The notes under the pieces were generated by a model. It did no database searches. It was not told the origin of the DNA and worked only from the letters and a program-made list of their open reading frames with translations. The position numbers and the translations under genes are program-made. A stretch of DNA of 11,485 bases from a virus, in the IMG/VR virus record IMGVR_UViG_3300044941_000346. One strand, 5' to 3'. Position 1 is the stretch's first letter; each line of letters opens with the position of its first letter. Positions 131-11,485 of this stretch are shown piece by piece.

Positions 131-2602
131 TCACTTCTTGCCCTTCTCCGGCGTTGGCACGAGCGCCGTCACCTTCTCCAGCGCCGAGCCTTGCAGCAGG
201 CCCGCCAGCACCTCAGAGACAGACTTGCCGCCCAGGATCGCCAGCGGAGCCATCGACTCGGCCACGCGCTCGACCAGCGCGCGGTCGCTAAACGCTTGGA
301 GCGCGGCGATAAGATCTGGGCTGATCGCCGCGGCCTTTTTGACCGTGCCGTCGACATTGGCCGCCAGCTCCTCTAAGCGCTGCGCGAGCTTCTGCGCCTC
401 AAACGCCACCTGCGCGTCCTGCGCGGCCTTCTGGCGCGCGATCTCGGCGTCGTGGATCTTGGTTAGCGCTTCTTGCTCGGCGGTCTTGCCCTCCAGCGTG
501 GCCGCCTGCGCGCTGTTGGTGGCCGCGATCTCGGCCAGCCGCACGGCGAGCCGACGCGCGACCTCTTCCTCCCGAAGCGCCAGCTCCTTCTGCGTCGTCT
601 GCGCCAGGGTTTCCATGATCTGGCGCTTCACATCTTCTTGCTGCGATACAAACGCTAAGCGGCGCTGCTCGCTTGCTAGATCCAATGTTTGCTGTACCAC
701 TGAGTGCTGTGCCTGTGTGAGCAACTCCTCAATCTTTGCATCGCCTAGCCGAACTCCTAGCACCTCCACGTCATAAATGCGCATGCCGTTCTCTTCGAAC
801 GTGCGCCCCGGACGCTTGCCACCCGCGTCAGCCTTGCCCAATACCGCGTCGCGGATCACGGCGATGGCGTCACTATAAAAGCTCTGGATACCATGTTGTT
901 TGATAGCGTTGCGCAGTAGAGAGCGCATGTGATCTGTCAAGAACTTGACAAAATTCTCGACATTAAACCACAGGTTGGGGTCGCCCTCGAAGTTGACGCG
1001 GTAGCTCAAGTGGACGTGCACCTGGCACAGATCGCGCGTCTCGGCGTCGACCAGATCGGAGATCTTGTTGTGCAGCGCGCGCAGGTAGACCGTGCGCAGC
1101 AGGTTGGTGTCGGTCTTAGGCGTGCCGGTGGACAGCTCCATCGTCTCCAACGTCTCATCATACTCCAAAAGGCAAGCGTTTGGCCCTACGATCACCTTGC
1201 GCTCGCCCGACTTGCTCACGACCTTGACCGCGTAGCCTGTCCAGACGCCGATCGTGACTGCGCCCTCGTATTTTGTATCGAGCGTGATGGTGCGCGGCGG
1301 ACTAAACTGCTGCTTCCTGTTAAAGTCGTCGCCCGCGAAACCCTCGGCGGCTTCCGAGCGGCGCTGCTGTTTGGCCGCGAGTTCCAAGATGTTTGCCTGG
1401 GCCAGATCGCCGTCCGTGATGACGGCGCCGCCGGGCGCGCCGCGCTGGCTCATCATCTGTTGCAGCCGCGCGTTGTACTCCTGCGCCTCGCGATTGCCCG
1501 GATACCACAGCGCGACCTGCTTGTCCGTCAGCACGCGGCGCACGATGACCTCGCGGCGAGGATCGGGCAGGAACATTGCGGGGCCACGCACCAGGCGGAT
1601 CTGGCCGGTCTGACGGTCCAGGCAATAGCGCCCCTCGCCCGCAGGGATCGCCACCGCGTAGTGGATCTCGCGGTTGCCATACTTGATGAGTGCGTGCTCG
1701 GGTCGAGGGAAGTAGATCATCTGCTCTTTGCCTGTGATGAAGAGCTCTTGGCCGACCTTGAACTCGGCGCCGCCCTCGGTGTAGGGCGCGATGACCTTGA
1801 CATAGATGCCCGATAGCTCGTTGAGCTCGATGGCCTTGAACTTGCGCAGCCCGTCGCGCTCCACGAACGTCTCGGTCGGCTCGGGGAACACGACAGCGGG
1901 TCCCTGAATAAAACGCTTGTTGCCGTCCTCATCCAAGAGGATACAGTACTCTAGGCGCTCAAGCGTGACAGCATCGCGGATGTAGCTGCCTGCGGCGTCG
2001 GGCACGACCTCGATGCCCGTGGGCGGGATGTAGAAGCTGACCTCGGTGCCCTTGATGATGAGCTGCTGGCCGAGCGTAAAGTCGGGGGTCTGCTGGGCTG
2101 CGGGCTGCTGTGCGCCGTCATCGGCGCTGGTCTGGAGCTTGACCACCGCCGCGCTCCAGTGCTTGCGCGCGCTCTCCTCATCGTAGACGCGCACCGTGAG
2201 GTACTGGTTGGAGCGCAGTGTGTGGCCCTTGACCACCTTGACCATCTGGCCCGGCCACAGCGCGAAGGACTGCGGGCCGGGGATGTTGACCTTGTGGCCG
2301 ACGTGGAGCTGCATCAGGTTGTTGACCGTGCCGGTCTTGGGCTGCTCGCCGTCCTTGGCCGGGTTCTTGAGCACCAGATACCAGCCCTCGGGCGCGGTGG
2401 CGAAGACCCGGATCGCTGGCTCCAACATGCAGCGCTCAAAGCGCTTGCTCTTCTCATCGAAGAACACGGGCTGATCCGTGTTGGCCAGGCTCGTCTTGTA
2501 TGGGCCGACATAGACGTTGATGTTGCCCTTGGTCTGATCCGAGATAAACGCATACTCATTGGGGGCCAGGACCAGATCGCGCTCACGGGAGTTATCCGCC
2601 AT
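131..2602 (-). CDS. mvp: Major vault protein (MVP) homologue, 823 aa; shell protein of vault ribonucleoprotein particles
   Basis: The translation aligns with eukaryotic MVP along its whole length. The N-terminus MADNSRERDLVLAPNEYAFISDQTKGNINVYVGPYKT parallels human MVP [35 protein letters not shown]. It is followed by serial ~55-aa MVP-repeat modules, a shoulder (SPFH-like) region and a long Ala/Glu/Gln-rich cap-helix coiled coil (EQRRLAFVSQQEDVKRQIMETLAQ...EAQKLAQRLEELAANV). The tail is cap-ring-like (ISPDLIAALQAFSDRALVERVAESMAPLAILGG; compare human [33 protein letters not shown]). The track start at 2611 is a GTG; the ATG at 2602..2600 gives MADNS... and is preceded by AAGGTG (2614..2609) with a 6-nt spacer. 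Confidence 0.9.
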   Translation of the reverse strand: MADNSRERDLVLAPNEYAFISDQTKGNINVYVGPYKTSLANTDQPVFFDEKSKRFERCMLEPAIRVFATAPEGWYLVLKNPAKDGEQPKTGTVNNLMQLHVGHKVNIPGPQSFALWPGQMVKVVKGHTLRSNQYLTVRVYDEESARKHWSAAVVKLQTSADDGAQQPAAQQTPDFTLGQQLIIKGTEVSFYIPPTGIEVVPDAAGSYIRDAVTLERLEYCILLDEDGNKRFIQGPAVVFPEPTETFVERDGLRKFKAIELNELSGIYVKVIAPYTEGGAEFKVGQELFITGKEQMIYFPRPEHALIKYGNREIHYAVAIPAGEGRYCLDRQTGQIRLVRGPAMFLPDPRREVIVRRVLTDKQVALWYPGNREAQEYNARLQQMMSQRGAPGGAVITDGDLAQANILELAAKQQRRSEAAEGFAGDDFNRKQQFSPPRTITLDTKYEGAVTIGVWTGYAVKVVSKSGERKVIVGPNACLLEYDETLETMELSTGTPKTDTNLLRTVYLRALHNKISDLVDAETRDLCQVHVHLSYRVNFEGDPNLWFNVENFVKFLTDHMRSLLRNAIKQHGIQSFYSDAIAVIRDAVLGKADAGGKRPGRTFEENGMRIYDVEVLGVRLGDAKIEELLTQAQHSVVQQTLDLASEQRRLAFVSQQEDVKRQIMETLAQTTQKELALREEEVARRLAVRLAEIAATNSAQAATLEGKTAEQEALTKIHDAEIARQKAAQDAQVAFEAQKLAQRLEELAANVDGTVKKAAAISPDLIAALQAFSDRALVERVAESMAPLAILGGKSVSEVLAGLLQGSALEKVTALVPTPEKGKK

Positions 2603-2608
2603 CACACA

Positions 2609-2614
2609 CACCTT
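2609..2614 (-). promoter_or_regulatory. Shine-Dalgarno (AAGGTG) for the MVP gene, 6 nt upstream of the ATG at 2602
   Basis: Minus-strand read: caAAGGTGtgtgtgATGgcggataac. A purine-rich SD at canonical spacing supports a bacterial-type initiation and the ATG 2602 start. Confidence 0.45.
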
Positions 2615-2829: not shown

Positions 2830-3705
2830 TCACCACCTGACCGGGATGCGCTCCGGCACGCCATCGCCAAACGTCTCGTAGAGGTTCAAGCGATCCATAT
2901 GCACATAACCGATGTGGCAGCCGCAGGTCTCGTTGGTGCAGGGCGAGCGCACGAGCGTTGTGTCGAAGCCCTCGTTGTAGATGTTGCCGATCGGCGTTTT
3001 GATGAAGTGACAGCGCCGCGCAGTGCCATCGCCGTCAACCGTAAAAGCGCTGTAGCCCGCGCGGCATGAGGCGCCAAGCGAGGCGTGGCGCGTGGCGTTG
3101 TAGCGAAAGAGCGGATCGATCTGCTCAAACTTTAGCAGGTCAAGCTCTTGGTAATAGCCAGGGTCGCGCTTGTAGGCGTTGATCCACATGTAGACGCTTG
3201 GATCCAGCTCGGCGCGCAGCGCATTTAGCTCGTCGAGCGCGTCCTTGAACCCCACAGCGCCCACCGAGTAGCGCACGCCGCGCGTGTCCAGCTCGCGGCA
3301 CTTGGCCACAAACCCCGCGCGCGTGATCTGGGTCGGGTGGTACGTTGTCCACAGCGCCAGCACGTTGCGGTTGGCGCGCTCGGTCCAGCCAAGCTTGCAT
3401 GTCAGGTTGGTTTGGATTGCCGCACGCCACACATGGGGCATGTGGCTTAACTCAATCAGGGCCTCCTGATAATGTCGCCTTATCAATCCCTCGCCCCAGG
3501 GCGTAAACAATAATCCGATCTGCTTATCTGTGCGGAGGCGTATCCACTCGACAAAGCGCTCTAGCTTTAGTCGATCATCCTCTAGCTCCGCGCGTGTATT
3601 GCGGGTCTTGGCAAATGGGCAGTAGTCGCAAGCATAGTTGCAGCTCGACAGCGGACCGCGATACAAGATCACCCATCTGTCTGCAGCCTCGTGTGGCGTC
3701 TTCAT
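2830..3705 (-). CDS. Radical SAM enzyme (Cx3Cx2C = CNYACDYC) with a C-terminal Cys cluster; resembles, from memory, the STM4011-type rSAM family
   Basis: The ORF has the canonical rSAM motif ...WVILYRGPLSSCNYACDYCPFAK near the N-terminus and a C-terminal cysteine cluster (CRAGY...RRCHF...SPCTNETCGCHIGYVH). The start is placed at ATG 3705..3703 (MKTPHEAADRW...), which forms an ATGA 4-bp overlap with the upstream gene stop (3704..3702). The track's longer ORF from 3756 would overlap the upstream gene by 55 bp. Confidence 0.8.
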   Translation of the reverse strand: MKTPHEAADRWVILYRGPLSSCNYACDYCPFAKTRNTRAELEDDRLKLERFVEWIRLRTDKQIGLLFTPWGEGLIRRHYQEALIELSHMPHVWRAAIQTNLTCKLGWTERANRNVLALWTTYHPTQITRAGFVAKCRELDTRGVRYSVGAVGFKDALDELNALRAELDPSVYMWINAYKRDPGYYQELDLLKFEQIDPLFRYNATRHASLGASCRAGYSAFTVDGDGTARRCHFIKTPIGNIYNEGFDTTLVRSPCTNETCGCHIGYVHMDRLNLYETFGDGVPERIPVRW

Positions 3706-5099
3706 GTGATCGCAAAGCCCCGCATCATTGCCTCCACCTTGGGCGAGTTCATCCACGGGCCGATCACGTCCGAGGCGTCGATCCCACGCTGCGTCAGCGC
3801 GAGCGTCCCGGCCTCACGGCGCACCAGCCCCAGTGCCTCCAGCTCCGCCACCTGTGGCAGCGCCTCGTCGAGCGACACCCCGAACCTGCGCGCAAACAGG
3901 GCGAGGTCGAGCGCGTGTGCGCCGCCATCGGCCAAGAGCGACACCACCACGAAGCGGCGCTGCTGCTCGGCCTCGTCCAGTAGAAAGCCGTAGTGGACCG
4001 CACCAAAGAACTCAGCGGGGCGCTGCACCCAGTCCTCGATGATGTGTACCACGCTGCGTCGTCCCACCGCCCACTCCGTCGAGTAGTGCAGCCCGCGCGT
4101 GTAGGATCGCGCGCCTACGCCCAGGCCCACCATCCCATCCGTCGCTGGGTGGTACGCCGGCCCGCGCGTGCGCGGTGTATGATCGGCACGCACGAACATC
4201 CGCATCGATCGCTGATTGTAGCCATGGGATAGAAGATAATCGCGGCCCTGTTGATACAGATCATAGCGCCAGTCATCCCACGCCTTGTCCGAGTTTCCTA
4301 GTCCCGTCAGCGGCCTCACATACAGAGGATACAAGAAGATCTCCTCGGAGCCATACGCCACCGCCGCTTCAAGCGAGCGCTCCCAGCTCTGTGCTGTCTG
4401 GCCCTCGATCCCGTAGATGAGGTCGATGTTGCGCTCCTCAAAGCTGCCGCTCGCCAAGAGTTCAAGCGCGCGCTCCAGCACCTTGTGCCGCTGCGGCCTG
4501 CGCACCGCCTTGGTCTCCGACTCCAAGAAGCTTTGCACCCCCATCGACACCCGCGTCACGTTAAATCTCTTTAATATGTCGATCTTCGATGGTGTCAGCG
4601 TCTCCGGGCTGACCTCACACGAGAGCGGGATCTGCGGCGCGCTGCCGCCCAGCGGCGCCCCCATGATCCCGGCCGCGACCCGCTCAAACAGCGCCTCAAG
4701 CGACGCGTCATCCAGCTGCGTCGGCGTCCCGCCCCCCACCGCCATCCGCGCAAACCCCACCTCGCGCTCGCCCAGCGCGCGCCGCGTCTGCTCGGCCTGC
4801 CGCGTCAGCGCCCCCAAGAAACCCCTGTGCAGCGCATCGCCTGGCTTGGCCATCGCGAACAGGTTACAGAACCCGCAGCGCATCTCGCAGAACGGCACAT
4901 GAATATACAGGTAGAGCGCGCGCGTGTCCTCCTCGCGCCAGACCTCCTCCAGCTGCAGTGCTGGCTCGATCGGGCGATAGGCCGTCTTATGCGGATAAGC
5001 GTAGGCATAAGATTGAAACGGTGAACCGGTCAGCCGCATGGCGAGCGTCCCGGTCGGCATCGCCGTGTGCGGTGTCGTCGTGATCTGTGTCGTCGTCAT
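3702..5099 (-). CDS. HemN/HemW-like radical SAM enzyme (oxygen-independent coproporphyrinogen-oxidase family fold); STM4012-like by recollection
   Basis: YLYIHVPFCEMRCGFCNLF is the HemN-family signature (YxHxPFC + Cx3Cx2C). The length (~465 aa) and the C-terminal winged-helix-like tail are typical of HemN-like proteins. The start is placed at ATG 5099..5097 (MTTTQITTTPH...), giving an ATGA overlap with the upstream hydrolase stop (5098..5096). The 43-codon N-terminal extension in the track (to 5228) overlaps the hydrolase gene and is rejected. Confidence 0.8.
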   Translation of the reverse strand: MTTTQITTTPHTAMPTGTLAMRLTGSPFQSYAYAYPHKTAYRPIEPALQLEEVWREEDTRALYLYIHVPFCEMRCGFCNLFAMAKPGDALHRGFLGALTRQAEQTRRALGEREVGFARMAVGGGTPTQLDDASLEALFERVAAGIMGAPLGGSAPQIPLSCEVSPETLTPSKIDILKRFNVTRVSMGVQSFLESETKAVRRPQRHKVLERALELLASGSFEERNIDLIYGIEGQTAQSWERSLEAAVAYGSEEIFLYPLYVRPLTGLGNSDKAWDDWRYDLYQQGRDYLLSHGYNQRSMRMFVRADHTPRTRGPAYHPATDGMVGLGVGARSYTRGLHYSTEWAVGRRSVVHIIEDWVQRPAEFFGAVHYGFLLDEAEQQRRFVVVSLLADGGAHALDLALFARRFGVSLDEALPQVAELEALGLVRREAGTLALTQRGIDASDVIGPWMNSPKVEAMMRGFAIT

Positions 5100-5923
5100 C
5101 TCTGCTCCATGCTGGTCTTCGCAGCTGAATAGAAGGCGTGCGCGTAGGGCACGTCCCACACCGCTTGATGCGCCAGCCGATGCCCGTAGAACCCATCCTC
5201 CCCATACGCTGTCCCGTGGTCCCCACATACGATACAGAACGTCTCATCCCGCAGCGATTCTAGTAGTAATGGCAGCTGGCTGTCTACATAGCGCAGCGCC
5301 GCTGCGTGCGTCTCGATCGTGTCCTCCGCCGCCCCATCTATATAAAAGCGATTCGGCTGGTGCAGCGCTGAGACATTGATAAACAGGAACGTGCGCTGCT
5401 CAGGTGCAAGCGCTCGTAGCCGCTCACCAGCTAGCTCAAACTGGTTTTTTGTAGAGTCTCGATCCGTCACGCCGAGCTTGGGCGCCCAGTGGCTCTCGTG
5501 AAATAAATTTGGTAGGACAGACCCCAGCGCCGTCTGCTTATTAAAGAAGCCCACGCCGCCGATGCAGATCGTGTGGTAGCCGCGCGCCGCCAGCCCCGTC
5601 ACAATGTCCGCCTCCTGCATCACACACGTCGTCTGTCCAGTCGTCTCCGATCCGCCAAAACTCGCCGCGAACAGCCTCACATGCCGCCCCGGTCTCGCCG
5701 GCGTCGGCAGAAACCCCGCGAAGAACGCTTGGTGTGCCGCATACGTAAAGCTCCCCGGCGTGTGCCGCCGCTCCCAGCCTCCCGGCCCGATCAGCCGCGC
5801 CAAGTGCGGCGTCTCGCCCGACCGCATCAGCCTGTCCGCCACATCAAAGCGCAGCGTATCCAGCGTCATAAACAGGATGTCGTGCGCCCCCACCACCGCG
5901 TTCATGTCCACATCATCGCTCAT
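5096..5923 (-). CDS. Alkaline-phosphatase-superfamily metallohydrolase (sulfatase/NPP/phosphonoacetate-hydrolase-like); STM4013/SEN3800-like by recollection
   Basis: The N-terminal metal-ligand block ILFMTLDTLRFD and the C-terminal block CIVCGDHGTAYGEDGFYGH (DHG...GxH) are hallmarks of the alkaline phosphatase / type I phosphodiesterase fold. The start is ambiguous. Candidates are GTG 5929 (17-bp overlap), ATG 5923 (11-bp overlap) and ATG 5905 (7-nt gap after the upstream TGA). None has a clean SD. Confidence 0.75.
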   Translation of the reverse strand: MSDDVDMNAVVGAHDILFMTLDTLRFDVADRLMRSGETPHLARLIGPGGWERRHTPGSFTYAAHQAFFAGFLPTPARPGRHVRLFAASFGGSETTGQTTCVMQEADIVTGLAARGYHTICIGGVGFFNKQTALGSVLPNLFHESHWAPKLGVTDRDSTKNQFELAGERLRALAPEQRTFLFINVSALHQPNRFYIDGAAEDTIETHAAALRYVDSQLPLLLESLRDETFCIVCGDHGTAYGEDGFYGHRLAHQAVWDVPYAHAFYSAAKTSMEQR

Positions 5924-7736
5924 CTTCACGCATCAACCACGCCTCAAGCTCTGTCACCTCGCCAAGCTCCACCTCGGGCGCTGGCTGCGCCACATGCCAC
6001 GTCCTGCCGCGCACTACCCACGCCGTCCTCAGCCCCACACACCGCGCCCCCAGCAGATCGTGCACCGGCGTATCACCGACCATCACCGCCGCGCGCGGAT
6101 CTTCCGCGCAGCCCGTCGCCGACAGCGCGGCCTCGAAGATCGCCGCGTCTGGTTTTGTAGCGCCGATCTCGTCTGAGATAAAGATCGCATCAGGATCAAA
6201 ATGTCGCAGGAGGTCAGCCCGCGCCAGCTTGTCGCGCTGGCTCGCGCTGCCACCGTTGCTCAACAGCGCCAACTTGTAACGTTTGCTCAATCGCTCAAGC
6301 ATCGCTTGAATCGCAGGCTCTGGCACAAGCTCCGCCGCGATGCGGCGCGGTAGCTCGGCCCACACGGCCCGCCACTCGCCCGCCTCCCTGCCGAGCAGCC
6401 CACACAGCGCCTCACACAACACTCGCCGATCCCCATGCCCATGCGCGTCCAGCGCAAACACCCGCGCCAGCGCCTCGTCATCACAGCCCGTCCAGCGCCG
6501 CACCGCCGCGCAGAACGCCGCGTCGCGGTCGATCAACGTGTTGTCGAGATCAAACAGCACCGCCCGTATCTTTGGCCACGCCTCCAGCCTGCCCCAGCCC
6601 GCAAAGCCCCGCACCTCCGCCGTATAGCTGTCCTCCCCACGATCATACACATTGGGCAGCAGATCCCCAAACGCATTGACCTCGATGATACGCGGCGCAT
6701 CCAGCGCATCCGCCGGGAACAACACGTCCGCCCCCAGATAATACGCGCCCGGAAACGCCTGCGCTGCCTGCCTACACAATACCTCAAGCGCGCTCCACCC
6801 CACATCTCCCACCAGCGCCCGCACCTGATCCAGCTCCCCCCGCGCGTTCCCCAGATGAAGGTTTGTCATGGGATGCTCTGAGGCCCGCACCACCACCTGA
6901 CGCGCCTCACCGCCGATCACCACCACCCGCAGATCAAAGTTTTTGTCCTGACCATCATGTCGGATCATCGCCTTTGATGACCACTTCTCCACCACCGCAC
7001 CCTCCGCCAATAAATAATTTAGCAGTAGCGCGATCTGTCGAATGTCGTGATAACGTCGCGGTCGAAGTGAATTGTAAATGGAGAACCTGCCGTCGCTGTC
7101 CTCCACCAGATGGGCCGTGGTGGTCAACATCGCGCGCGGGCCGCTGACGCGCAGAGCCGCAACGCCCGACGCAGACGAGCTGCCGCGCAGCTTCACAAAC
7201 ACCCGATCCCAGCCCGCCTCGTCCATCCGCGCCCGCAGCGCCTCCCACGATCCCACGCCCTCCAGCGATGGCATCCTCGGCACACCATGCGCGTCCAATC
7301 TGCGGTGCGTCGCCAGCTTGTCAAACATCACCGCGATCTCGTCCGGGCGGCTCATGATGCGCCCCGGCGCACCTTCAAGTATCACTTGAAGGTCGCGCAA
7401 GACCGCCTGCCAGCCCGCGCGCAGCTGCCCCGGCGCCAAAAGCCTGCCGTGCTCAAGCGGCGCACAGAGCGCCTCCTGCGCGGTAAGCGTCGGCTCGTCC
7501 AGCTCCTCCGCACCGCGCGCCAGCAGCCTGCGCGTCACGCGCGCATCCTCGCCCGGCGACTCCAGCCGCAGGATCGTGTCGTCGTCCAGCAGATCTGGCA
7601 GCACCACGCGCCCCTCCAACACGTCGAGCCACGCCACAAAGCGCGCCGCGCTGTGGCCGCTGCGCATCAGCGCGTCCTGCACGTACGCTGTGCGGCGATG
7701 CCCCGCGTTGCCCACCACCACCCACCGCCTCGTCAT
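5913..7736 (-). CDS. Two-domain fusion: N-terminal ATP-grasp ligase (RimK/glutathione-synthetase-like) + C-terminal HAD-superfamily phosphatase
   Basis: ATP-grasp: DLRVVVIGGEARQVVVRASEHPMTNLHLGNARGE matches the RimK core ([32 protein letters not shown]). The motif ...RIIEVNAFGD is also present. HAD: motif I FDLDNTL (aa ~398), S/T motif LLSNGG, Lys in GATKPD, and the motif IV block MVGDTPVHDL. The start is placed at ATG 7736..7734 (MTRRWVVVGN...), giving an ATGA overlap with the upstream LRR gene stop (7735..7733). Confidence 0.8.
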   Translation of the reverse strand: MTRRWVVVGNAGHRRTAYVQDALMRSGHSAARFVAWLDVLEGRVVLPDLLDDDTILRLESPGEDARVTRRLLARGAEELDEPTLTAQEALCAPLEHGRLLAPGQLRAGWQAVLRDLQVILEGAPGRIMSRPDEIAVMFDKLATHRRLDAHGVPRMPSLEGVGSWEALRARMDEAGWDRVFVKLRGSSSASGVAALRVSGPRAMLTTTAHLVEDSDGRFSIYNSLRPRRYHDIRQIALLLNYLLAEGAVVEKWSSKAMIRHDGQDKNFDLRVVVIGGEARQVVVRASEHPMTNLHLGNARGELDQVRALVGDVGWSALEVLCRQAAQAFPGAYYLGADVLFPADALDAPRIIEVNAFGDLLPNVYDRGEDSYTAEVRGFAGWGRLEAWPKIRAVLFDLDNTLIDRDAAFCAAVRRWTGCDDEALARVFALDAHGHGDRRVLCEALCGLLGREAGEWRAVWAELPRRIAAELVPEPAIQAMLERLSKRYKLALLSNGGSASQRDKLARADLLRHFDPDAIFISDEIGATKPDAAIFEAALSATGCAEDPRAAVMVGDTPVHDLLGARCVGLRTAWVVRGRTWHVAQPAPEVELGEVTELEAWLMREDER

Positions 7737-8992
7737 GCCATCCACCAGGGGTCATCCGGGTCGAGCGCCGCTGCGCACCAGCGCGCCCCCACCTCATCAA
7801 GCTCCGCGCGCACCGCCGCGCTGGCCGCAATCGCAGCCAGCGTCACCTCATTAAAGCCGTTCCCATTTAACACCACCCGCGCGCTCGGATGCAGCCGCGG
7901 CGACGTGATCAGCGCCAGCGCCCCCGCGTCCGTGAGCTGCGTCGCCGACAGATTTAGTAGGCGCAACTGCCCCACCCACGGCAGCGCCAGCAGCCGCTCT
8001 ACGGCTTGATCCGTCAACGGGTTGTCGCTCAGATCCAGCGCGGTCAGCCCCCAGCTGTGCCCTTCTGTGAGTGGCTCGAACAGCGTGTCCAGCGTCGCAT
8101 CGTCGATCCTGCACTCGCCCAGCTCCAGCGTCTTCAAGCGACCCAGCACCGCAGGCGCCTCGCGCAGCACATGCGCCCCTCCGTGCAAGAATAGATTGCC
8201 GCGCAGCGACAGGTGCCGCAGCGCCTCCCAGCCCGACAACGCGAAGATGTGCATACACGGCAGCCCGTGGTGCCCCTCACAGTGCTCCAGCCAGAGCGAC
8301 TCCAGCACGGGCGCCGCGTCCGCAACCTCGACCAGCGCGTCCAACCCCGCGCTGCCGCCCACGCCGAGCGGGTTGCGCGACAGATCCAGGTGCCGCAGCC
8401 CCCGCACCAGCGGTGCACGCGCCAGCCGCACCAGCGGCAGCGCCATCGGCTGCGCGTTATTGCTCGTTGCACGTGTCACGTTCGCCAGGCTCAACCGCTC
8501 AAGCGGCGGCTTATCTGGCTCATCTTGCAGCCAGGCGTCCAGCGCGCCCAACACATCATTGTCCGACAGGTCAAGCGCGCGGAGCCGGTTGTGCTCGGCC
8601 AGCCGCTCCATCAGCGGCCCCACCATATGCTCGTGCAGGCTCGTCCCAGCCAGATCGAGCTGCGTGATGTGCCCCAGCGCCGGATGCTCGATCAGGCGCT
8701 GCATCTTGTCCCGATCCGTCAGCTGCACATGCACTCGCAGCCGCCTGGCGAGCGCCAGCGCGGGCAGCTTGTCGCCCGATAGCACCCGCGCAATCCAGCG
8801 CCGAGGCGCCACCCGCCAGCTATCCTCCCAGCCGCGCAGCTGCGCCTCACAATACGGCAGCGCCTGCTCGGCCAACGATCCATCGTCTGGCCACCGCTCC
8901 AGGAGCGCGCACAGCGCCCCCCACGTCTGCGGCTCAGGCGCGCGCTGCAGTAGGCTGCGCAGCTCCCCGAACAACACCTCGCGCTCGCTCAA
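7733..8992 (-). CDS. RNI-type leucine-rich-repeat protein, paralogue A (~419 aa), with a ~75-aa Trp-rich N-terminal domain shared by the downstream paralogues
   Basis: There are multiple 25-29-aa repeats of the form LxxLxLSxNxLxDxgaxxL (LDLSDNDVLGALDAWL, LDLSRNPLGVGGSAGLDAL, LDLSDNPLTDQAVERLLAL, LNLSATQLTDAGALAL). The N-terminal domain is LFGELRSLLQRAPEPQTWGALCALLERW...ALPYCEAQLRGWEDSWRVAPRRWIARVLSG. The likely start is TTG 8992..8990, preceded by AGGTGG (9003..8998) with a 5-nt spacer, giving a TTGA 4-bp overlap with the upstream stop. The alternative is GTG 9001 (the track start). Confidence 0.75.
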   Translation of the reverse strand: MSEREVLFGELRSLLQRAPEPQTWGALCALLERWPDDGSLAEQALPYCEAQLRGWEDSWRVAPRRWIARVLSGDKLPALALARRLRVHVQLTDRDKMQRLIEHPALGHITQLDLAGTSLHEHMVGPLMERLAEHNRLRALDLSDNDVLGALDAWLQDEPDKPPLERLSLANVTRATSNNAQPMALPLVRLARAPLVRGLRHLDLSRNPLGVGGSAGLDALVEVADAAPVLESLWLEHCEGHHGLPCMHIFALSGWEALRHLSLRGNLFLHGGAHVLREAPAVLGRLKTLELGECRIDDATLDTLFEPLTEGHSWGLTALDLSDNPLTDQAVERLLALPWVGQLRLLNLSATQLTDAGALALITSPRLHPSARVVLNGNGFNEVTLAAIAASAAVRAELDEVGARWCAAALDPDDPWWMA

Positions 8993-9855
8993 GGCTCCCA
9001 CCTCTCGTCATCCACCCACACCGCAAGCTCTGGTCGCTGCGCATACAGATGCTCAAGCGCCGCGCGCACGGAGCGCTCACGCACCTCCAGCCCCGTCAGC
9101 CTGACCTCGCGCAGCGTCGGCAGCTGCTTGGGCGCCGCGCTCAACCACTCCAGGCGCACCCGGTTCCCACTTATATTTAAAGTCTCAATGCTCTCCATGC
9201 GATCCGTGAGCATCGCGTGAATCGATAGATCATTGTCGCTGATGTTAAGGTGTTTGATATGACTCATTGCGCCAGCTTTATTTATATGGACAGCATAGAC
9301 TGTGCTCAGCCCACAGCGTCGCAGGCTTATCCGAGCCAGCTTTGTCGCATCTGCGGGGAGCATCGCCCAGACACCTCGACCACCAAGTGGATTGTGATCA
9401 AGTGTCAAGGATTCGAGAACAGACCAGCTCAGATGACGCCCCAAGATCGCTCCTGCTTCCTCGCCTAAATCACACTCCGACAACATCACATGTGTGAGCG
9501 GCCCCATATCGGGGTTGCTTAATACTACCAAGAGTCCGTGATCGCCGAGCGGGCCGCGGTGGTGGAGGTGGCGGGCTAGCCGCCACAGCCTGCACCGCTC
9601 GCCGCGCAGCGTGGCCCGCATCCAAGCCGCCGGGTTGACGCGCATGGCGTCAGGCCAGGCTTTGAGGTGCTCCTCGGCGTAGGGGATGAGCATCTCCCAC
9701 AGGTAGTCATCATGCGCTGCGGGTGCCAGCACCGCGCAGATCTCGGCCCAGACAAGCGGGCAGGGCGGGCGGTGCAGCAGGCTGCGCAGCTCGGAGAGGC
9801 GCCACTCGGGCGAATCACGATGGGTTTTGGGTGAGGGAGACGGCATCAAGCTCAC
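8989..9855 (-). CDS. RNI-type leucine-rich-repeat protein, paralogue B (288 aa), same N-terminal domain family
   Basis: N-terminal domain: WRLSELRSLLHRPPCPLVWAEICAVL...LIPYAEEHLKAWPDAMRVNPAAWMRATLRGE. It aligns with paralogue A through the conserved ELRSLL, ALPY/LIPY, W(P/E)D..RV.P and W(I/M) positions. LRRs: LTLDHNPLGGRGVWAML, LNISDNDLSIHAML, LNISGNRVRLEWL. The GTG start at 9855..9853 forms a GTGA overlap with the upstream stop. ATG 9846 is the alternative. Confidence 0.75.
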   Translation of the reverse strand: MSLMPSPSPKTHRDSPEWRLSELRSLLHRPPCPLVWAEICAVLAPAAHDDYLWEMLIPYAEEHLKAWPDAMRVNPAAWMRATLRGERCRLWRLARHLHHRGPLGDHGLLVVLSNPDMGPLTHVMLSECDLGEEAGAILGRHLSWSVLESLTLDHNPLGGRGVWAMLPADATKLARISLRRCGLSTVYAVHINKAGAMSHIKHLNISDNDLSIHAMLTDRMESIETLNISGNRVRLEWLSAAPKQLPTLREVRLTGLEVRERSVRAALEHLYAQRPELAVWVDDERWEP

Positions 9856-10573
9856 AGGTCGTCGTCGTAGGGCTCCTCAAGCTCGATCATAGCCTCGTTG
9901 GCGCTGCTCAACAACTCCAGCCGCGCGTTGCAGCCGACGGGGTTGGGCGACAGGCTCAACTGCTCCATCCGTTTGAGCCACACGCACGCCGCGAGCGCAT
10001 AGGCGCCGCGCGAGTTTATGGGGTTGCGCTCAAGCTCGATCGCGGTCTGCGCCGCAAGCCGTAGGCCCGTCACCAGCAGCTCCAGCCCCTCGTCATAGAG
10101 CGCGCAGCTGTGGAGCGACAGGTTGGTCAAGGCGCGCTCGACGCCGCGCGGCGCCTATGCGGTTGTGGCTCAGGTTGGGCGAGACAAGCCGCGTCAGGTG
10201 CGGGCACTGGACGCTGGCGTGCGGATGCCCTTGTCGCTGACCGAGGACCTGTAGCGCATGACGCGCACCAGCACAAGGGACGCCCCCGGATGGCGTGCTT
10301 GATCCAATCCGGGGGCGCGACGCGCAGCGCGTCAGGCCATGTGTCCAGCGCACGCTTGAGGTAGGGCAGGGCCCTCTCGGTGAACAGATCTGGTCGCTCT
10401 GGTTGCGCCTGGTAGGCGTCGATCGCGCGTCCCAGCGCATTCCAGCGCGCCGCGTCGGGCTGGCCGTGCGCAACGCCGCAGAATTCCCCATACCAAGTTG
10501 TCTTGATTGACCTTCTTTTTGCGCTACAAAATGCGTGTTCGGTGTGGTCGGTAAAAGGCTGAGCCAAAGGCAA
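9852..10573 (-). pseudogene. Third LRR paralogue, apparently disrupted by two frameshifts (N-domain in one frame, first LRRs in a second, C-terminal LRRs + acidic tail in a third)
   Basis: Frame 1 (10127..10573) encodes the N-domain homologue WYGEFCGVAHGQPDAARWNALGRAIDAY...ALPYLKRALDTWPDALRVAPPDWIKHAIRGRPLCW. Frame 2 (within 10093..10491) continues with ARHALQVLG...CPHLTRLVSPNLSHNRIGAA, which matches paralogue B LARHLHHRGPLG...GPLTHVMLSECDLGEEAGA. Frame 3 (9852..10130) encodes LRRs and ends EEPYDDDL. This implies single-nt indels near ~10300 and ~10130. Confidence 0.5.
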
Positions 10574-10639
10574 TGAGGCAGAATGAAGGAAGCTTGGTAT
10601 TATTTGTTATCTTATCTCCTCGTTTTATCGTGGTCTTTG

Positions 10640-10825
10640 TTATGTGTTAAAGTGACGGTTTAAGCGTGGCCGCTCACTCCACCAAGTCGTAGAACGTGCC
10701 AAACTCGATCTCCAGAGCGCCTTCCACGCCTCGGCGCTGGACGGCTGCTCCAGCGCGCTGCGCAGCTCACCGAACCGCGCGCTGTGATCACTCACCGACT
10801 TCGACATACCAGTAGTCATCGTCAT
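10640..10825 (-). pseudogene. Orphan fragment of the LRR-paralogue N-terminal domain (first ~25 aa conserved, then degenerates and stops)
   Basis: The 61-aa ORF contains ARFGELRSALEQPSSAEAWKALW, closely matching LFGELRSLLQRAPEPQTWGALCALLERW of paralogue A. The remainder has no similarity and runs into the AT-rich spacer. It overlaps the 3' end of the upstream LRR gene in another frame. Confidence 0.3.
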
Positions 10826-11485
10826 CGTCGGCGCGGCGCTGCCCGCCGTTACGCACCGTCACGCCCGTCGCGCGGAGCTGGTCGATCAGCTCCTCATCGC
10901 CGATGAAGTTATTGGTGATATCAATCGACTTGAGCTTGCCGATCTTTGGATTCCTCGCTAGCGCACCGGCTCCTGTATTCGACATGATCCCCTTCGACAG
11001 ATCCAGCTCCTCCAGGAAGTCCAGCACAGGCGCATCAAACAGCGCCTCCGCCAGCTCGTCCGCCAGCTCGCTGTTCACCAGCCCCAGCCGCTTGAGCTTG
11101 GGGAACGGATACCGCATCTCCGGATACGCTGTCCCCACCAGCAGCGGCTTCACATCCTCCACCGTCACGTCCGCCCCGTACTCGCTGCTCCCCGTCCAGA
11201 TCTCCAGATGCTGCAGGTTCGGCAGCTTCGCGCTCACGATCTGGCGCACCGTGTGGCCGCTCACGCCGCCTGTCTCCACGATCAGCGTCTCCAGCGTCGG
11301 GTGGCTCAGGCCCGTGAACCCCAGCCCGTTGCCGCCGCGCGCCTTGAAGTGCTTGAGCTTGGGGAAGGCGTTGATCACCGCGCCCAGATCAAACTGCTCG
11401 ATCCACGACACCTCGCTCTCCTCATAGGAGATGTCGCCCACAAACAGCGCCTCCAAGGAGGTGAGCTTGGGCGCCGCCGCCCGCA
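10788..11485 (-). CDS. RNI-type LRR protein, 5'-partial (start lies beyond the window end), with acidic/aromatic C-terminal tail DDDDDYWYVEVGE
   Basis: The open frame runs off the window at 11485; M at 11456 is only the first in-window Met. Repeats LETLIVETGGVSGHTVRQI, LQHLEIW, LKRLGLVNSELADELAEAL, LEELDLSKGIMSNTGAGALA, LKSIDITNNFIGDEELIDQL are RNI-like LRRs. The composition (more K/I/F) differs from paralogues A/B, so it may be a distinct LRR subtype. Confidence 0.75.
   Translation of the reverse strand, partial: RAAAPKLTSLEALFVGDISYEESEVSWIEQFDLGAVINAFPKLKHFKARGGNGLGFTGLSHPTLETLIVETGGVSGHTVRQIVSAKLPNLQHLEIWTGSSEYGADVTVEDVKPLLVGTAYPEMRYPFPKLKRLGLVNSELADELAEALFDAPVLDFLEELDLSKGIMSNTGAGALARNPKIGKLKSIDITNNFIGDEELIDQLRATGVTVRNGGQRRADDDDDYWYVEVGE

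Follow-up and report, generated by a model that had tools for sequence, protein, structure and literature searches.

Among the described ATP-grasp enzymes, LysX and ArgX attach amino acids to the C-terminal Glu of LysW (PMC12998189), and RimK ligates onto the C-terminal Glu of ribosomal protein S6 (PMC10375531). An ATP-grasp domain and a phosphatase domain are found in a single chain in Vip1/PPIP5K (PMC7196807), the only well-studied polypeptide of this kind that we encountered. It was also shown that HAD phosphatases can be fused to the enzyme that makes or precedes their phosphorylated substrate, as in MtlD (mannitol-1-phosphate dehydrogenase/phosphatase, PDB 7ocn) and drimenol synthase (PMC12232559), although in these proteins the partner is a dehydrogenase or a terpene cyclase, unrelated to ATP-grasp. 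Here we describe a gene on IMG/VR virus record IMGVR_UViG_3300044941_000346 (11,485 nucleotides; the whole of this stretch is called the window below), in which an ATP-grasp domain of the STM4014 family and a HAD phosphatase domain are carried in one polypeptide within a cluster of the STM4011-STM4015 type.

The STM4011-STM4015 cluster is catalogued in NCBIfam, with two radical SAM enzymes and no assigned function, and in the literature searched on STM4011-STM4015/SEN3800 the genes appear in tables only, again with no function assigned. Searches of the literature for ATP-grasp and HAD fusions, or for ATP-grasp enzymes together with radical SAM and leucine-rich repeat (LRR) proteins, yielded analogues only (Vip1/PPIP5K and drimenol synthase), and no ATP-grasp partner for a fused HAD finishing phosphatase was described there. 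STM4014 and an optional HAD gene, neighbours that are translationally coupled elsewhere, have been joined in the window gene, which is thus a Rosetta-stone fusion: the same HAD is encoded separately but adjoining STM4014 in 15 loci of other genomes. Within a family that is known but uncharacterised, this domain architecture is a new variant and as such a modest surprise.

The fused gene and its two domains

The gene is a single, uninterrupted open reading frame (ORF) on the minus strand at 5913..7745, encoding 610 amino acids (aa) from a GTG at 7745 or 607 from an ATG at 7736; residues are numbered from the ATG unless GTG numbering is stated. A preliminary description, made from the letters of the window alone, had placed an ATP-grasp ligase and a HAD phosphatase in this one polypeptide, and this is borne out by the match of NCBIfam model NF038074 to the N-terminal part and of the Pfam models HAD_2 and Hydrolase to the C-terminal part. 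The domain boundary that it gave, at aa ~393 and nucleotide ~6569, is right in GTG numbering, in which the Pfam HAD match starts at aa 393. In the predicted structure of the fused protein (pLDDT 92.5, pTM 0.78) the linker region stands out by a fall of the pLDDT to 73 at residues 381-390. The catalytic Asp of FDLDNTL and the nucleotide-binding residues of the ATP-grasp domain, on whose presence the preliminary description had staked its reading, were both found: the Asp is present and conserved, and the nucleotide and Mg residues are all there. Judged by these motifs, both active sites of the fused protein are intact.

The N-terminal domain is an ATP-grasp enzyme by its fold and catalytic residues and a member of a catalogued, uncharacterised family. 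Its match to NF038074 ('STM4014 family protein') reaches 333.3 bits (cutoff 175; E 1.9e-99) and extends from position 1 to position 346 of the 349-position model, or over aa 8-379 in GTG numbering. Canonical members of this family, which is filed as 'hypothetical equivalog', are single-domain proteins of ~350-400 aa, whereas the window protein adds a C-terminal HAD domain of 218 aa. None of the ATP-grasp models of Pfam matched the window protein at E <= 0.01, and curated thresholds were not reached (TIGR00768 RimK, 21 bits against a cutoff of 143); on the fused protein the RimK model gave E 1.6e-4 and the LysX model E 5.7e-4, and STM4014 homologues showed only weak or faint matches to PF14397, PF14398 and PF08443. 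When phmmer was run against PDB sequences, the HAD half alone was matched and nothing was returned for the ATP-grasp half. A profile of 83 homologues retrieved ATP-grasp proteins exclusively from the PDB, but at sub-significant values (E 0.03-0.2), so that a comparison of folds was needed.

Fold comparison of the predicted structure placed the N-terminal domain among ATP-grasp enzymes. The matches listed were headed by ArgX bound to LysW (23.1), LysX/ArgX bound to LysW-gamma-AAA (22.8) and RimK (21.9), followed by glutathione synthetase (21.0), DcsG (20.9), PurK/PurT (~20), PPIP5K2 (19.5) and D-Ala-D-Ala ligases (~19), and Foldseek concurred (ArgX, E 7e-12, TM 0.75). In these model-based comparisons the small-molecule ligases are only marginally weaker matches than the ligases of protein tails. 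The residues K140, K182, D268, R270, T291-N292-L-H294, R299-G300, D337, E352 and N354 are invariant across the 83 homologues. In partial alignments of hidden Markov models (HMMs) the segments around K140 and K182 align to their equivalents in LysX and in a CPS-like ATP-grasp, FDLRV aligns to the DIRV of LysX, and FDLRV with the TNLH loop region aligns to LysX GRDIRVFVVG...HWITNT. D337 and E352-x-N354 are presumably the metal ligands, as assigned from ATP-grasp enzymes in general. As read from the alignment, the invariant residues of STM4014 are those expected of an ATP-grasp ligase. Extended architectures of STM4014 other than the HAD fusion are rare; one of the two proteins P0042 (528 aa) and P0164 (535 aa) has an N-terminal Peptidase_M3 fragment, and the other is extended at its C-terminus by ~150 aa that match nothing in Pfam.

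The C-terminal domain was matched by Pfam HAD_2 (E 2.2e-17) and Hydrolase (E 1.3e-15) over aa 393-577 in GTG numbering (~390-575 from the ATG), and models of subfamily IA scored above their cutoffs (given in brackets): HAD_2 with 64.2 bits (23.8), TIGR01549 with 46.1 (23.3) and TIGR01509 with 32.0 (29.4). The cutoffs of characterised equivalogs were missed, namely TIGR02253 (98.1 vs 169.75), TIGR02254 or YjjG (72.7 vs 159.9) and NF006976 (72.6 vs 183). In motif I, F-D396-L-D398-N-T400-L, the residues D396, D398 and T400 are invariant in the seven fused proteins described below and conserved in 21 HADs of the cluster; an Asp at +2 of the nucleophile marks a phosphatase or mutase and not a dehalogenase. 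Motifs II-IV are present as S493 (Thr in the fused protein P0234), K528 and G554-D555...D560. These matches make the domain a phosphatase of the HAD-IA type that belongs to none of the characterised equivalogs, and its closest relatives, NANP/HDHD4 and the YjjG/YfnB-type HAD-IA phosphatases, have an identity of only 24-28% to it. NANP completes sialic-acid synthesis. The HADs of the cluster form a distinct subfamily, scoring 223-285 bits on a dedicated HMM in 84 loci, versus at most 40 bits for other HADs. Motifs and distribution together indicate that the HAD co-evolves with the cluster and is an intact enzyme of the phosphomonoesterase type, which would take the phosphate off a small phosphorylated group of the pathway.

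Occurrence of the fusion and of the split genes

A homologue search over 5.8 billion proteins gave 1616 homologues, nearly all with a single domain and ~380-400 aa, and an exhaustive HMMER pass over 1.84 billion representatives at 50% identity gave 556 proteins at E <= 1e-30. Besides P0001, which is identical to the window protein, the fused form was found in P0002 and P0003 (69% and 67% identity; JGI and Logan), in P0004 (42%, on contigs of two different samples) and in P0035 (33-35%), and the HMMER pass yielded two further fused forms, P0122 and P0234. Overall the fused proteins, from JGI, ENA and Logan datasets, have identities to the window protein of 69%, 67%, 42%, 35%, 33% and 30%, and all seven are colinear in the alignment through a short linker. 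The fusion is rare, amounting to about 5 of the ~556 family clusters at 50% identity (~1%).

It might be argued that the single ORF is the product of faulty assembly or sequencing, in which a frameshift has merged two overlapping genes, as the two genes are separate in all 18 HAD-bearing reference genomes and often overlap by 4-11 nt in the 15 that have the HAD after STM4014. Such an artefact is excluded for practical purposes by the fused homologues at 30-69% identity, which come from independent JGI, ENA and Logan data and align colinearly through the linker, and by the presence of P0004 on contigs from two samples; its probability is negligible and we have rejected it. In a neighbour-joining tree of the HAD domain the three sampled fused lineages were on separate branches among split forms, the window grouping with Bradymonadales and Pirellulaceae, locus L003 with Bacteroidota, and L001 standing apart. 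The tree places the origin of the fusion probably at three independent events or more, a count that is provisional since the tree is without bootstrap support.

For the comparison with split genes, 80 genome loci with STM4014 relatives were retrieved and all window proteins were mapped on their ORFs. The sample covers Planctomycetota, Myxococcota, Bradymonadales, Cyanobacteria, Chloroflexota, Actinomycetota, Bacteroidota, Burkholderiales, Verrucomicrobiota and a Promethearchaeota metagenome-assembled genome (MAG). The gene order STM4015-STM4014-[HAD]-STM4013-STM4012-STM4011 is kept in ~80 genomes of more than 10 phyla. The preliminary description had asked whether homologues are split into two genes elsewhere, and they are: 18 of the 80 loci encode a HAD of the window type, an upper estimate because the loci were ranked by the full fused query, and each time it is an ORF of its own. 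In 15 loci the HAD gene occupies the place between STM4014 and STM4013, and as a rule its start and the end of STM4014 share 4, 8 or 11 nt or are separated by 1 nt. The suggestion that the split pair might be STM4014/4015-like did not hold. STM4015 is an LRR-like protein (NF038076) encoded upstream and not a HAD, and it was rejected as the split phosphatase partner. The HAD is instead a dedicated but optional, unnamed sixth member of the cluster. Stray HADs in the flanks were an unrelated one of 40 bits in L018 and an unrelated weak one of 27.6 bits in the HAD-bearing L080.

Two of the loci deserve separate mention. In L003, on a Bacteroidota-like contig, a gene for a formylglycine-generating enzyme (FGE-sulfatase, PF03781) at 6002-6784 is located two genes upstream of STM4015-STM4014, and it may be relevant to STM4013, which has a sulfatase fold. 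In L075 (Promethearchaeota MAG JAFGGO010000093.1) a complete STM4015(x2)-4014-4013-4012-4011 cluster is found on a contig assigned to Asgard archaea, and this archaeal cluster is due either to horizontal transfer or to a binning error.

The STM4015 tail and a possible coupled reaction

The three best structural relatives of the STM4014 domain, ArgX, LysX and RimK, ligate on the C-terminal Glu of proteins with acidic tails, from which the Glu at the tail of STM4015 is inferred as the substrate. In most loci STM4014 is immediately preceded by STM4015, often in the form of 2-5 tandem paralogues, and STM4015 stays paired with STM4014 where the cluster is split. Among the STM4015-family ORFs of loci L001-L084, 124 of 130 end in Glu. 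The 111 unique tails have Tyr or Phe at -5 without exception and Arg at -6 in 106, Val is dominant at -2, and an Asp/Glu-rich run is found at -13 to -8, as in ...DDDERYVAVSE-COOH; the window copy ends in ...DDDDDYWYVEVGE. This likeness suggests STM4015 as a substrate or carrier of the ATP-grasp domain, with a tail like that of LysW, S6 or tubulin. As in the amino-group carrier protein system (LysW/LysX), the ATP-grasp gene adjoins the gene of a protein with an acidic tail and a C-terminal Glu. Unlike LysW, a zinc finger of 54 aa, the candidate carrier STM4015 is LRR-like and of ~300 aa, and the cluster is without enzymes of the LysZ, LysY, LysJ or LysK type, having two radical SAM enzymes, an alkaline-phosphatase (AlkP)-fold hydrolase and sometimes the HAD. 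STM4014 itself is ~100 aa larger than LysX, ArgX and RimK, and its sequence similarity to them is marginal (E ~0.05, profile).

We propose that the N-terminal domain would act as a carboxylate-amine ligase of the RimK/LysX type, forming an acyl-phosphate from a carboxylate at the expense of ATP, which an amine then attacks. The most likely carboxylate would be the invariant C-terminal Glu of STM4015 in its acidic tail (R-Y/F-x-x-V-x-E-COOH). The HAD would be a Mg2+-dependent phosphomonoesterase, C1-capped and NANP/YjjG-like, acting on a small phosphorylated group. In the simplest scheme, what the ligase attaches would bear a phosphate handle, and the HAD would remove it shortly before or shortly after ligation, perhaps following the action of the phosphodiesterase-like STM4013; the two radical SAM enzymes would then remodel the product. 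The fusion would merely fix a 1:1 stoichiometry and the proximity of consecutive or coupled steps, and the pathway would not require it. We give this coupled ligase-phosphatase scheme, with the tail Glu of STM4015 as the carboxylate, a probability of about 0.5 overall. The functional coupling of ligase and phosphatase, as first put forward in the preliminary description, is upheld by the HAD lying directly after STM4014 in 15 genomes and by a fusion that probably occurred at least three times. Its order of ligation followed by dephosphorylation is plausible by analogy and has precedents in pairs of a synthase and a dedicated HAD, including NANP, and in covalent HAD fusions, among them MtlD (7ocn) and drimenol synthase.

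A number of observations weigh against the coupled scheme. With the dedicated HMM a cluster-type HAD was not found within +-10 kb in 62 of the 80 loci, so that dephosphorylation by this HAD can be part of an obligatory step only if a housekeeping phosphatase takes over where it is lacking. In L015, L066 and L081, where the cluster is in two units, the HAD heads a HAD-4013-4012-4011 unit, apart from 4015-4014. The sequence-level signals of an ATP-grasp enzyme are weak (no Pfam match; RimK at E 1.6e-4), and biochemical data on any STM4011-STM4015 member were not found in the literature searched. C1-capped HADs usually take small free metabolites, a poor fit to a protein-bound substrate. Against that, the cap (~60 aa, alignment columns ~435-500) is deleted in the fused variants P0122 and P0234, which keep the catalytic motifs, and capless HADs usually take macromolecular substrates. 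Strict channelling should be viewed with caution, as the HAD is dispensable in most clusters, segregates with STM4013 where the cluster splits and has a C1 cap that suggests a small free substrate.

It is possible, although we regard it as doubtful, that the ATP-grasp domain ligates small molecules in the manner of GshB, Ddl or DcsG, that STM4015 is a regulator or scaffold, and that a free phosphorylated metabolite is provided or completed by the HAD, by the logic of a synthase with its dedicated HAD phosphatase, in which dephosphorylation makes the step irreversible. The C1 cap is typical of small-molecule phosphatases, the closest relatives of the HAD are NANP and the nucleotidase-like YjjG/YfnB, and homologues of STM4014 have weak matches to the 'sugar-transfer associated ATP-grasp' model PF14397; a HAD-IA fusion of like logic has been solved in mannitol-1-phosphate dehydrogenase/phosphatase (7ocn). 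However, a small-molecule ligase leaves the RYxxVxE tail of STM4015, its tandem paralogues and its near-obligatory place upstream of STM4014 unexplained, and the three best ATP-grasp matches are all ligases of protein C-termini.

A further explanation takes STM4013 as the partner of the HAD: STM4013 would make a phosphomonoester from which the HAD removes the phosphate, and the fusion to STM4014 would be an accident of gene order, with no catalytic coupling. The three loci with the HAD at the head of the STM4013 unit agree with it, and in genomic terms the closest partner of the HAD may be the AlkP-fold hydrolase STM4013 rather than the ATP-grasp enzyme. Overlaps of 4-11 nt also make a fusion by a single indel easy, and fused forms are few, in about 5 of 556 family clusters. 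We nonetheless hold this to be unlikely, because the fusion is apparently fixed in at least three lineages and was kept over 30-69% identity with both active sites intact, and because no HAD-STM4013 fusion was found in 84 loci, although the HAD and STM4013 also abut. Far less probable still is a switch of the kind documented for Vip1 (PMC7196807), whose ATP-grasp kinase is joined to a phosphatase domain; here phosphorylation of a substrate by the ATP-grasp domain and its reversal by the attached phosphatase would together set a steady-state level. The kinase domain of Vip1/PPIP5K is a detectable fold match, but ligases outrank kinases in the fold comparison and the RimK-like TNLHxG..RG loop is invariant. 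Furthermore, Vip1/PPIP5K is eukaryotic, is a kinase and not a ligase, has a histidine acid phosphatase and not a HAD, and combines opposing and not sequential activities, whereas here the HAD is optional, so that the system runs without an 'off' activity, and the gene stands in a biosynthetic operon that includes two radical SAM enzymes.

Gene context of the window and implications

The whole window is one array of minus-strand genes (Table 1). The neighbours STM4011, STM4012, STM4013 and STM4015 are all above or near their NCBIfam cutoffs and stand in the order seen in the ~80 genomes. ATGA overlaps are found at three successive junctions (7733-7736, 5096-5099 and 3702-3705), which indicates one translationally coupled operon; in the light of these overlaps, the starts of the longest ORFs, 5228 for STM4012 and 3756 for STM4011, are probably too far upstream.

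Table 1. Coordinates of the genes, domains and motifs in the window (residues numbered from the ATG at 7736).
Feature	Position	Strand	Remarks
Fused STM4014(ATP-grasp)-HAD coding sequence	5913..7736	-	607 aa; TGA stop 5913-5915; alternative GTG start 7745
ATGA start/stop overlap of the fused gene with the upstream LRR gene	7733..7736	-	Translational coupling indicated
STM4014-family ATP-grasp domain	6609..7724	-	aa 5-376
Nucleotide-site lysines, then GSSASG loop	7188..7328	-	MFDK (K140, 7317-7328) and VFVKL (K182, 7188-7202); both lysines invariant
FDLRV and MTNLHLGNARG	6837..6938	-	D268, R270; T291-N292-L-H294, R299-G300; putative RimK/LysX-type substrate/phosphate loop
Presumed Mg2+-ligand motifs GADVLF and IIEVNAFGDLL	6657..6734	-	D337; E352-x-N354; invariant columns
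Interdomain linker	6570..6608	-	~13 aa, GFAGWGRLEAWPK; matches the stop/start overlap region of the split genes
HAD subfamily-IA phosphatase domain	5916..6569	-	aa 390-607, 218 aa
HAD motif I, FDLDNTL	6534..6554	-	aa 395-401; D396 nucleophile, D398 general acid/base
HAD C1 cap, four helices	6333..6527	-	aa 404-468; DSSP helices 404-416, 420-430, 437-448, 452-468
HAD motifs II-IV	6057..6266	-	LLSNG (S493), GATKPD (K528), VGDTPVHD (D555/D560)
STM4013/SEN3800-family hydrolase, alkaline-phosphatase/sulfatase fold	5096..5929	-	NF038075, 406 bits; Pfam Sulfatase, Metalloenzyme
STM4012, HemN-like radical SAM	3702..5099	-	NF006067, 525 bits; likely start M44, ATGA 5096-5099; ORF open to 5228
STM4011, radical SAM with weak SPASM-like C-terminus	2830..3705	-	NF038073, 386 bits; likely start M18, ATGA 3702-3705; ORF open to 3756
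STM4015-family LRR-like protein, cut by the window end	10788..11485	-	NF038076, 228 bits; frame open at the edge; ends ...DDDDDYWYVEVGE
LRR protein	7733..9001	-	422 aa; between STM4015 and the fused gene; without RYxxVxE tail
LRR protein	8989..9855	-	288 aa; between STM4015 and the fused gene; without RYxxVxE tail
Major-vault-protein-like protein	131..2611	-	826 aa; shoulder and repeat domains, SPFH/Band-7 signal; PF11978 E 1e-27

In addition to the two LRR genes of the table, a third tandem LRR paralogue is present at ~9852-10825 on the minus strand, also without the RYxxVxE tail and split into ORFs at 10640-10825, 10127-10573 and 9852-10130. It is apparently broken by two frameshifts and is either a pseudogene or an assembly error. 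The three tandem paralogues have a common N-terminal domain of the form '...ELRSLL..P....W..L...'. The gene for a protein like the major vault protein, directly downstream of STM4011, had no homologue in the 84 related loci; it was rejected as a cluster member and is probably outside the cluster, although a bacterial protein of this kind is unusual in itself. With the defence models of PADLOC the fused protein was unmatched, and its neighbours gave marginal radical-SAM matches only.

The STM4011-STM4015 cluster is widespread: STM4014 homologues form ~556 clusters at 50% identity, and they occur in Cyanobacteria, Myxococcota, Planctomycetota, Chloroflexota, Actinomycetota, Bacteroidota and Proteobacteria, Salmonella among the latter. 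Few computational signs of functional coupling are as reliable as a gene fusion. In the present case the fusion ties a dedicated phosphomonoesterase to the ATP-grasp step, thus implying phosphorylated chemistry in the pathway. If it were merely an accident of gene order, the gene would be an ordinary variant of domain architecture.

Going beyond the coupled scheme, we tentatively suggest, as something possible and clearly less probable than that scheme, that STM4011-STM4015 could be an unrecognised protein-templated modification or carrier system. STM4014 would add a phosphate-bearing amine to the Glu of STM4015, derivatising it as LysX, RimK or tubulin-tyrosine ligase do; the HAD and STM4013 would trim the phosphate; and the HemN-like and SPASM-like radical SAM enzymes would finish the product by rebuilding the appended group or cross-linking it to the conserved Tyr. 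The ATP-grasp-HAD fusion would then be a genomic clue to a phosphorylated intermediate at the ligation step. The fusion, the invariant tail of STM4015 and the ArgX/LysX/RimK-like fold make the function of the cluster directly testable, and if the suggestion is true it may represent a new kind of protein-C-terminus modification or of carrier-protein biosynthesis.

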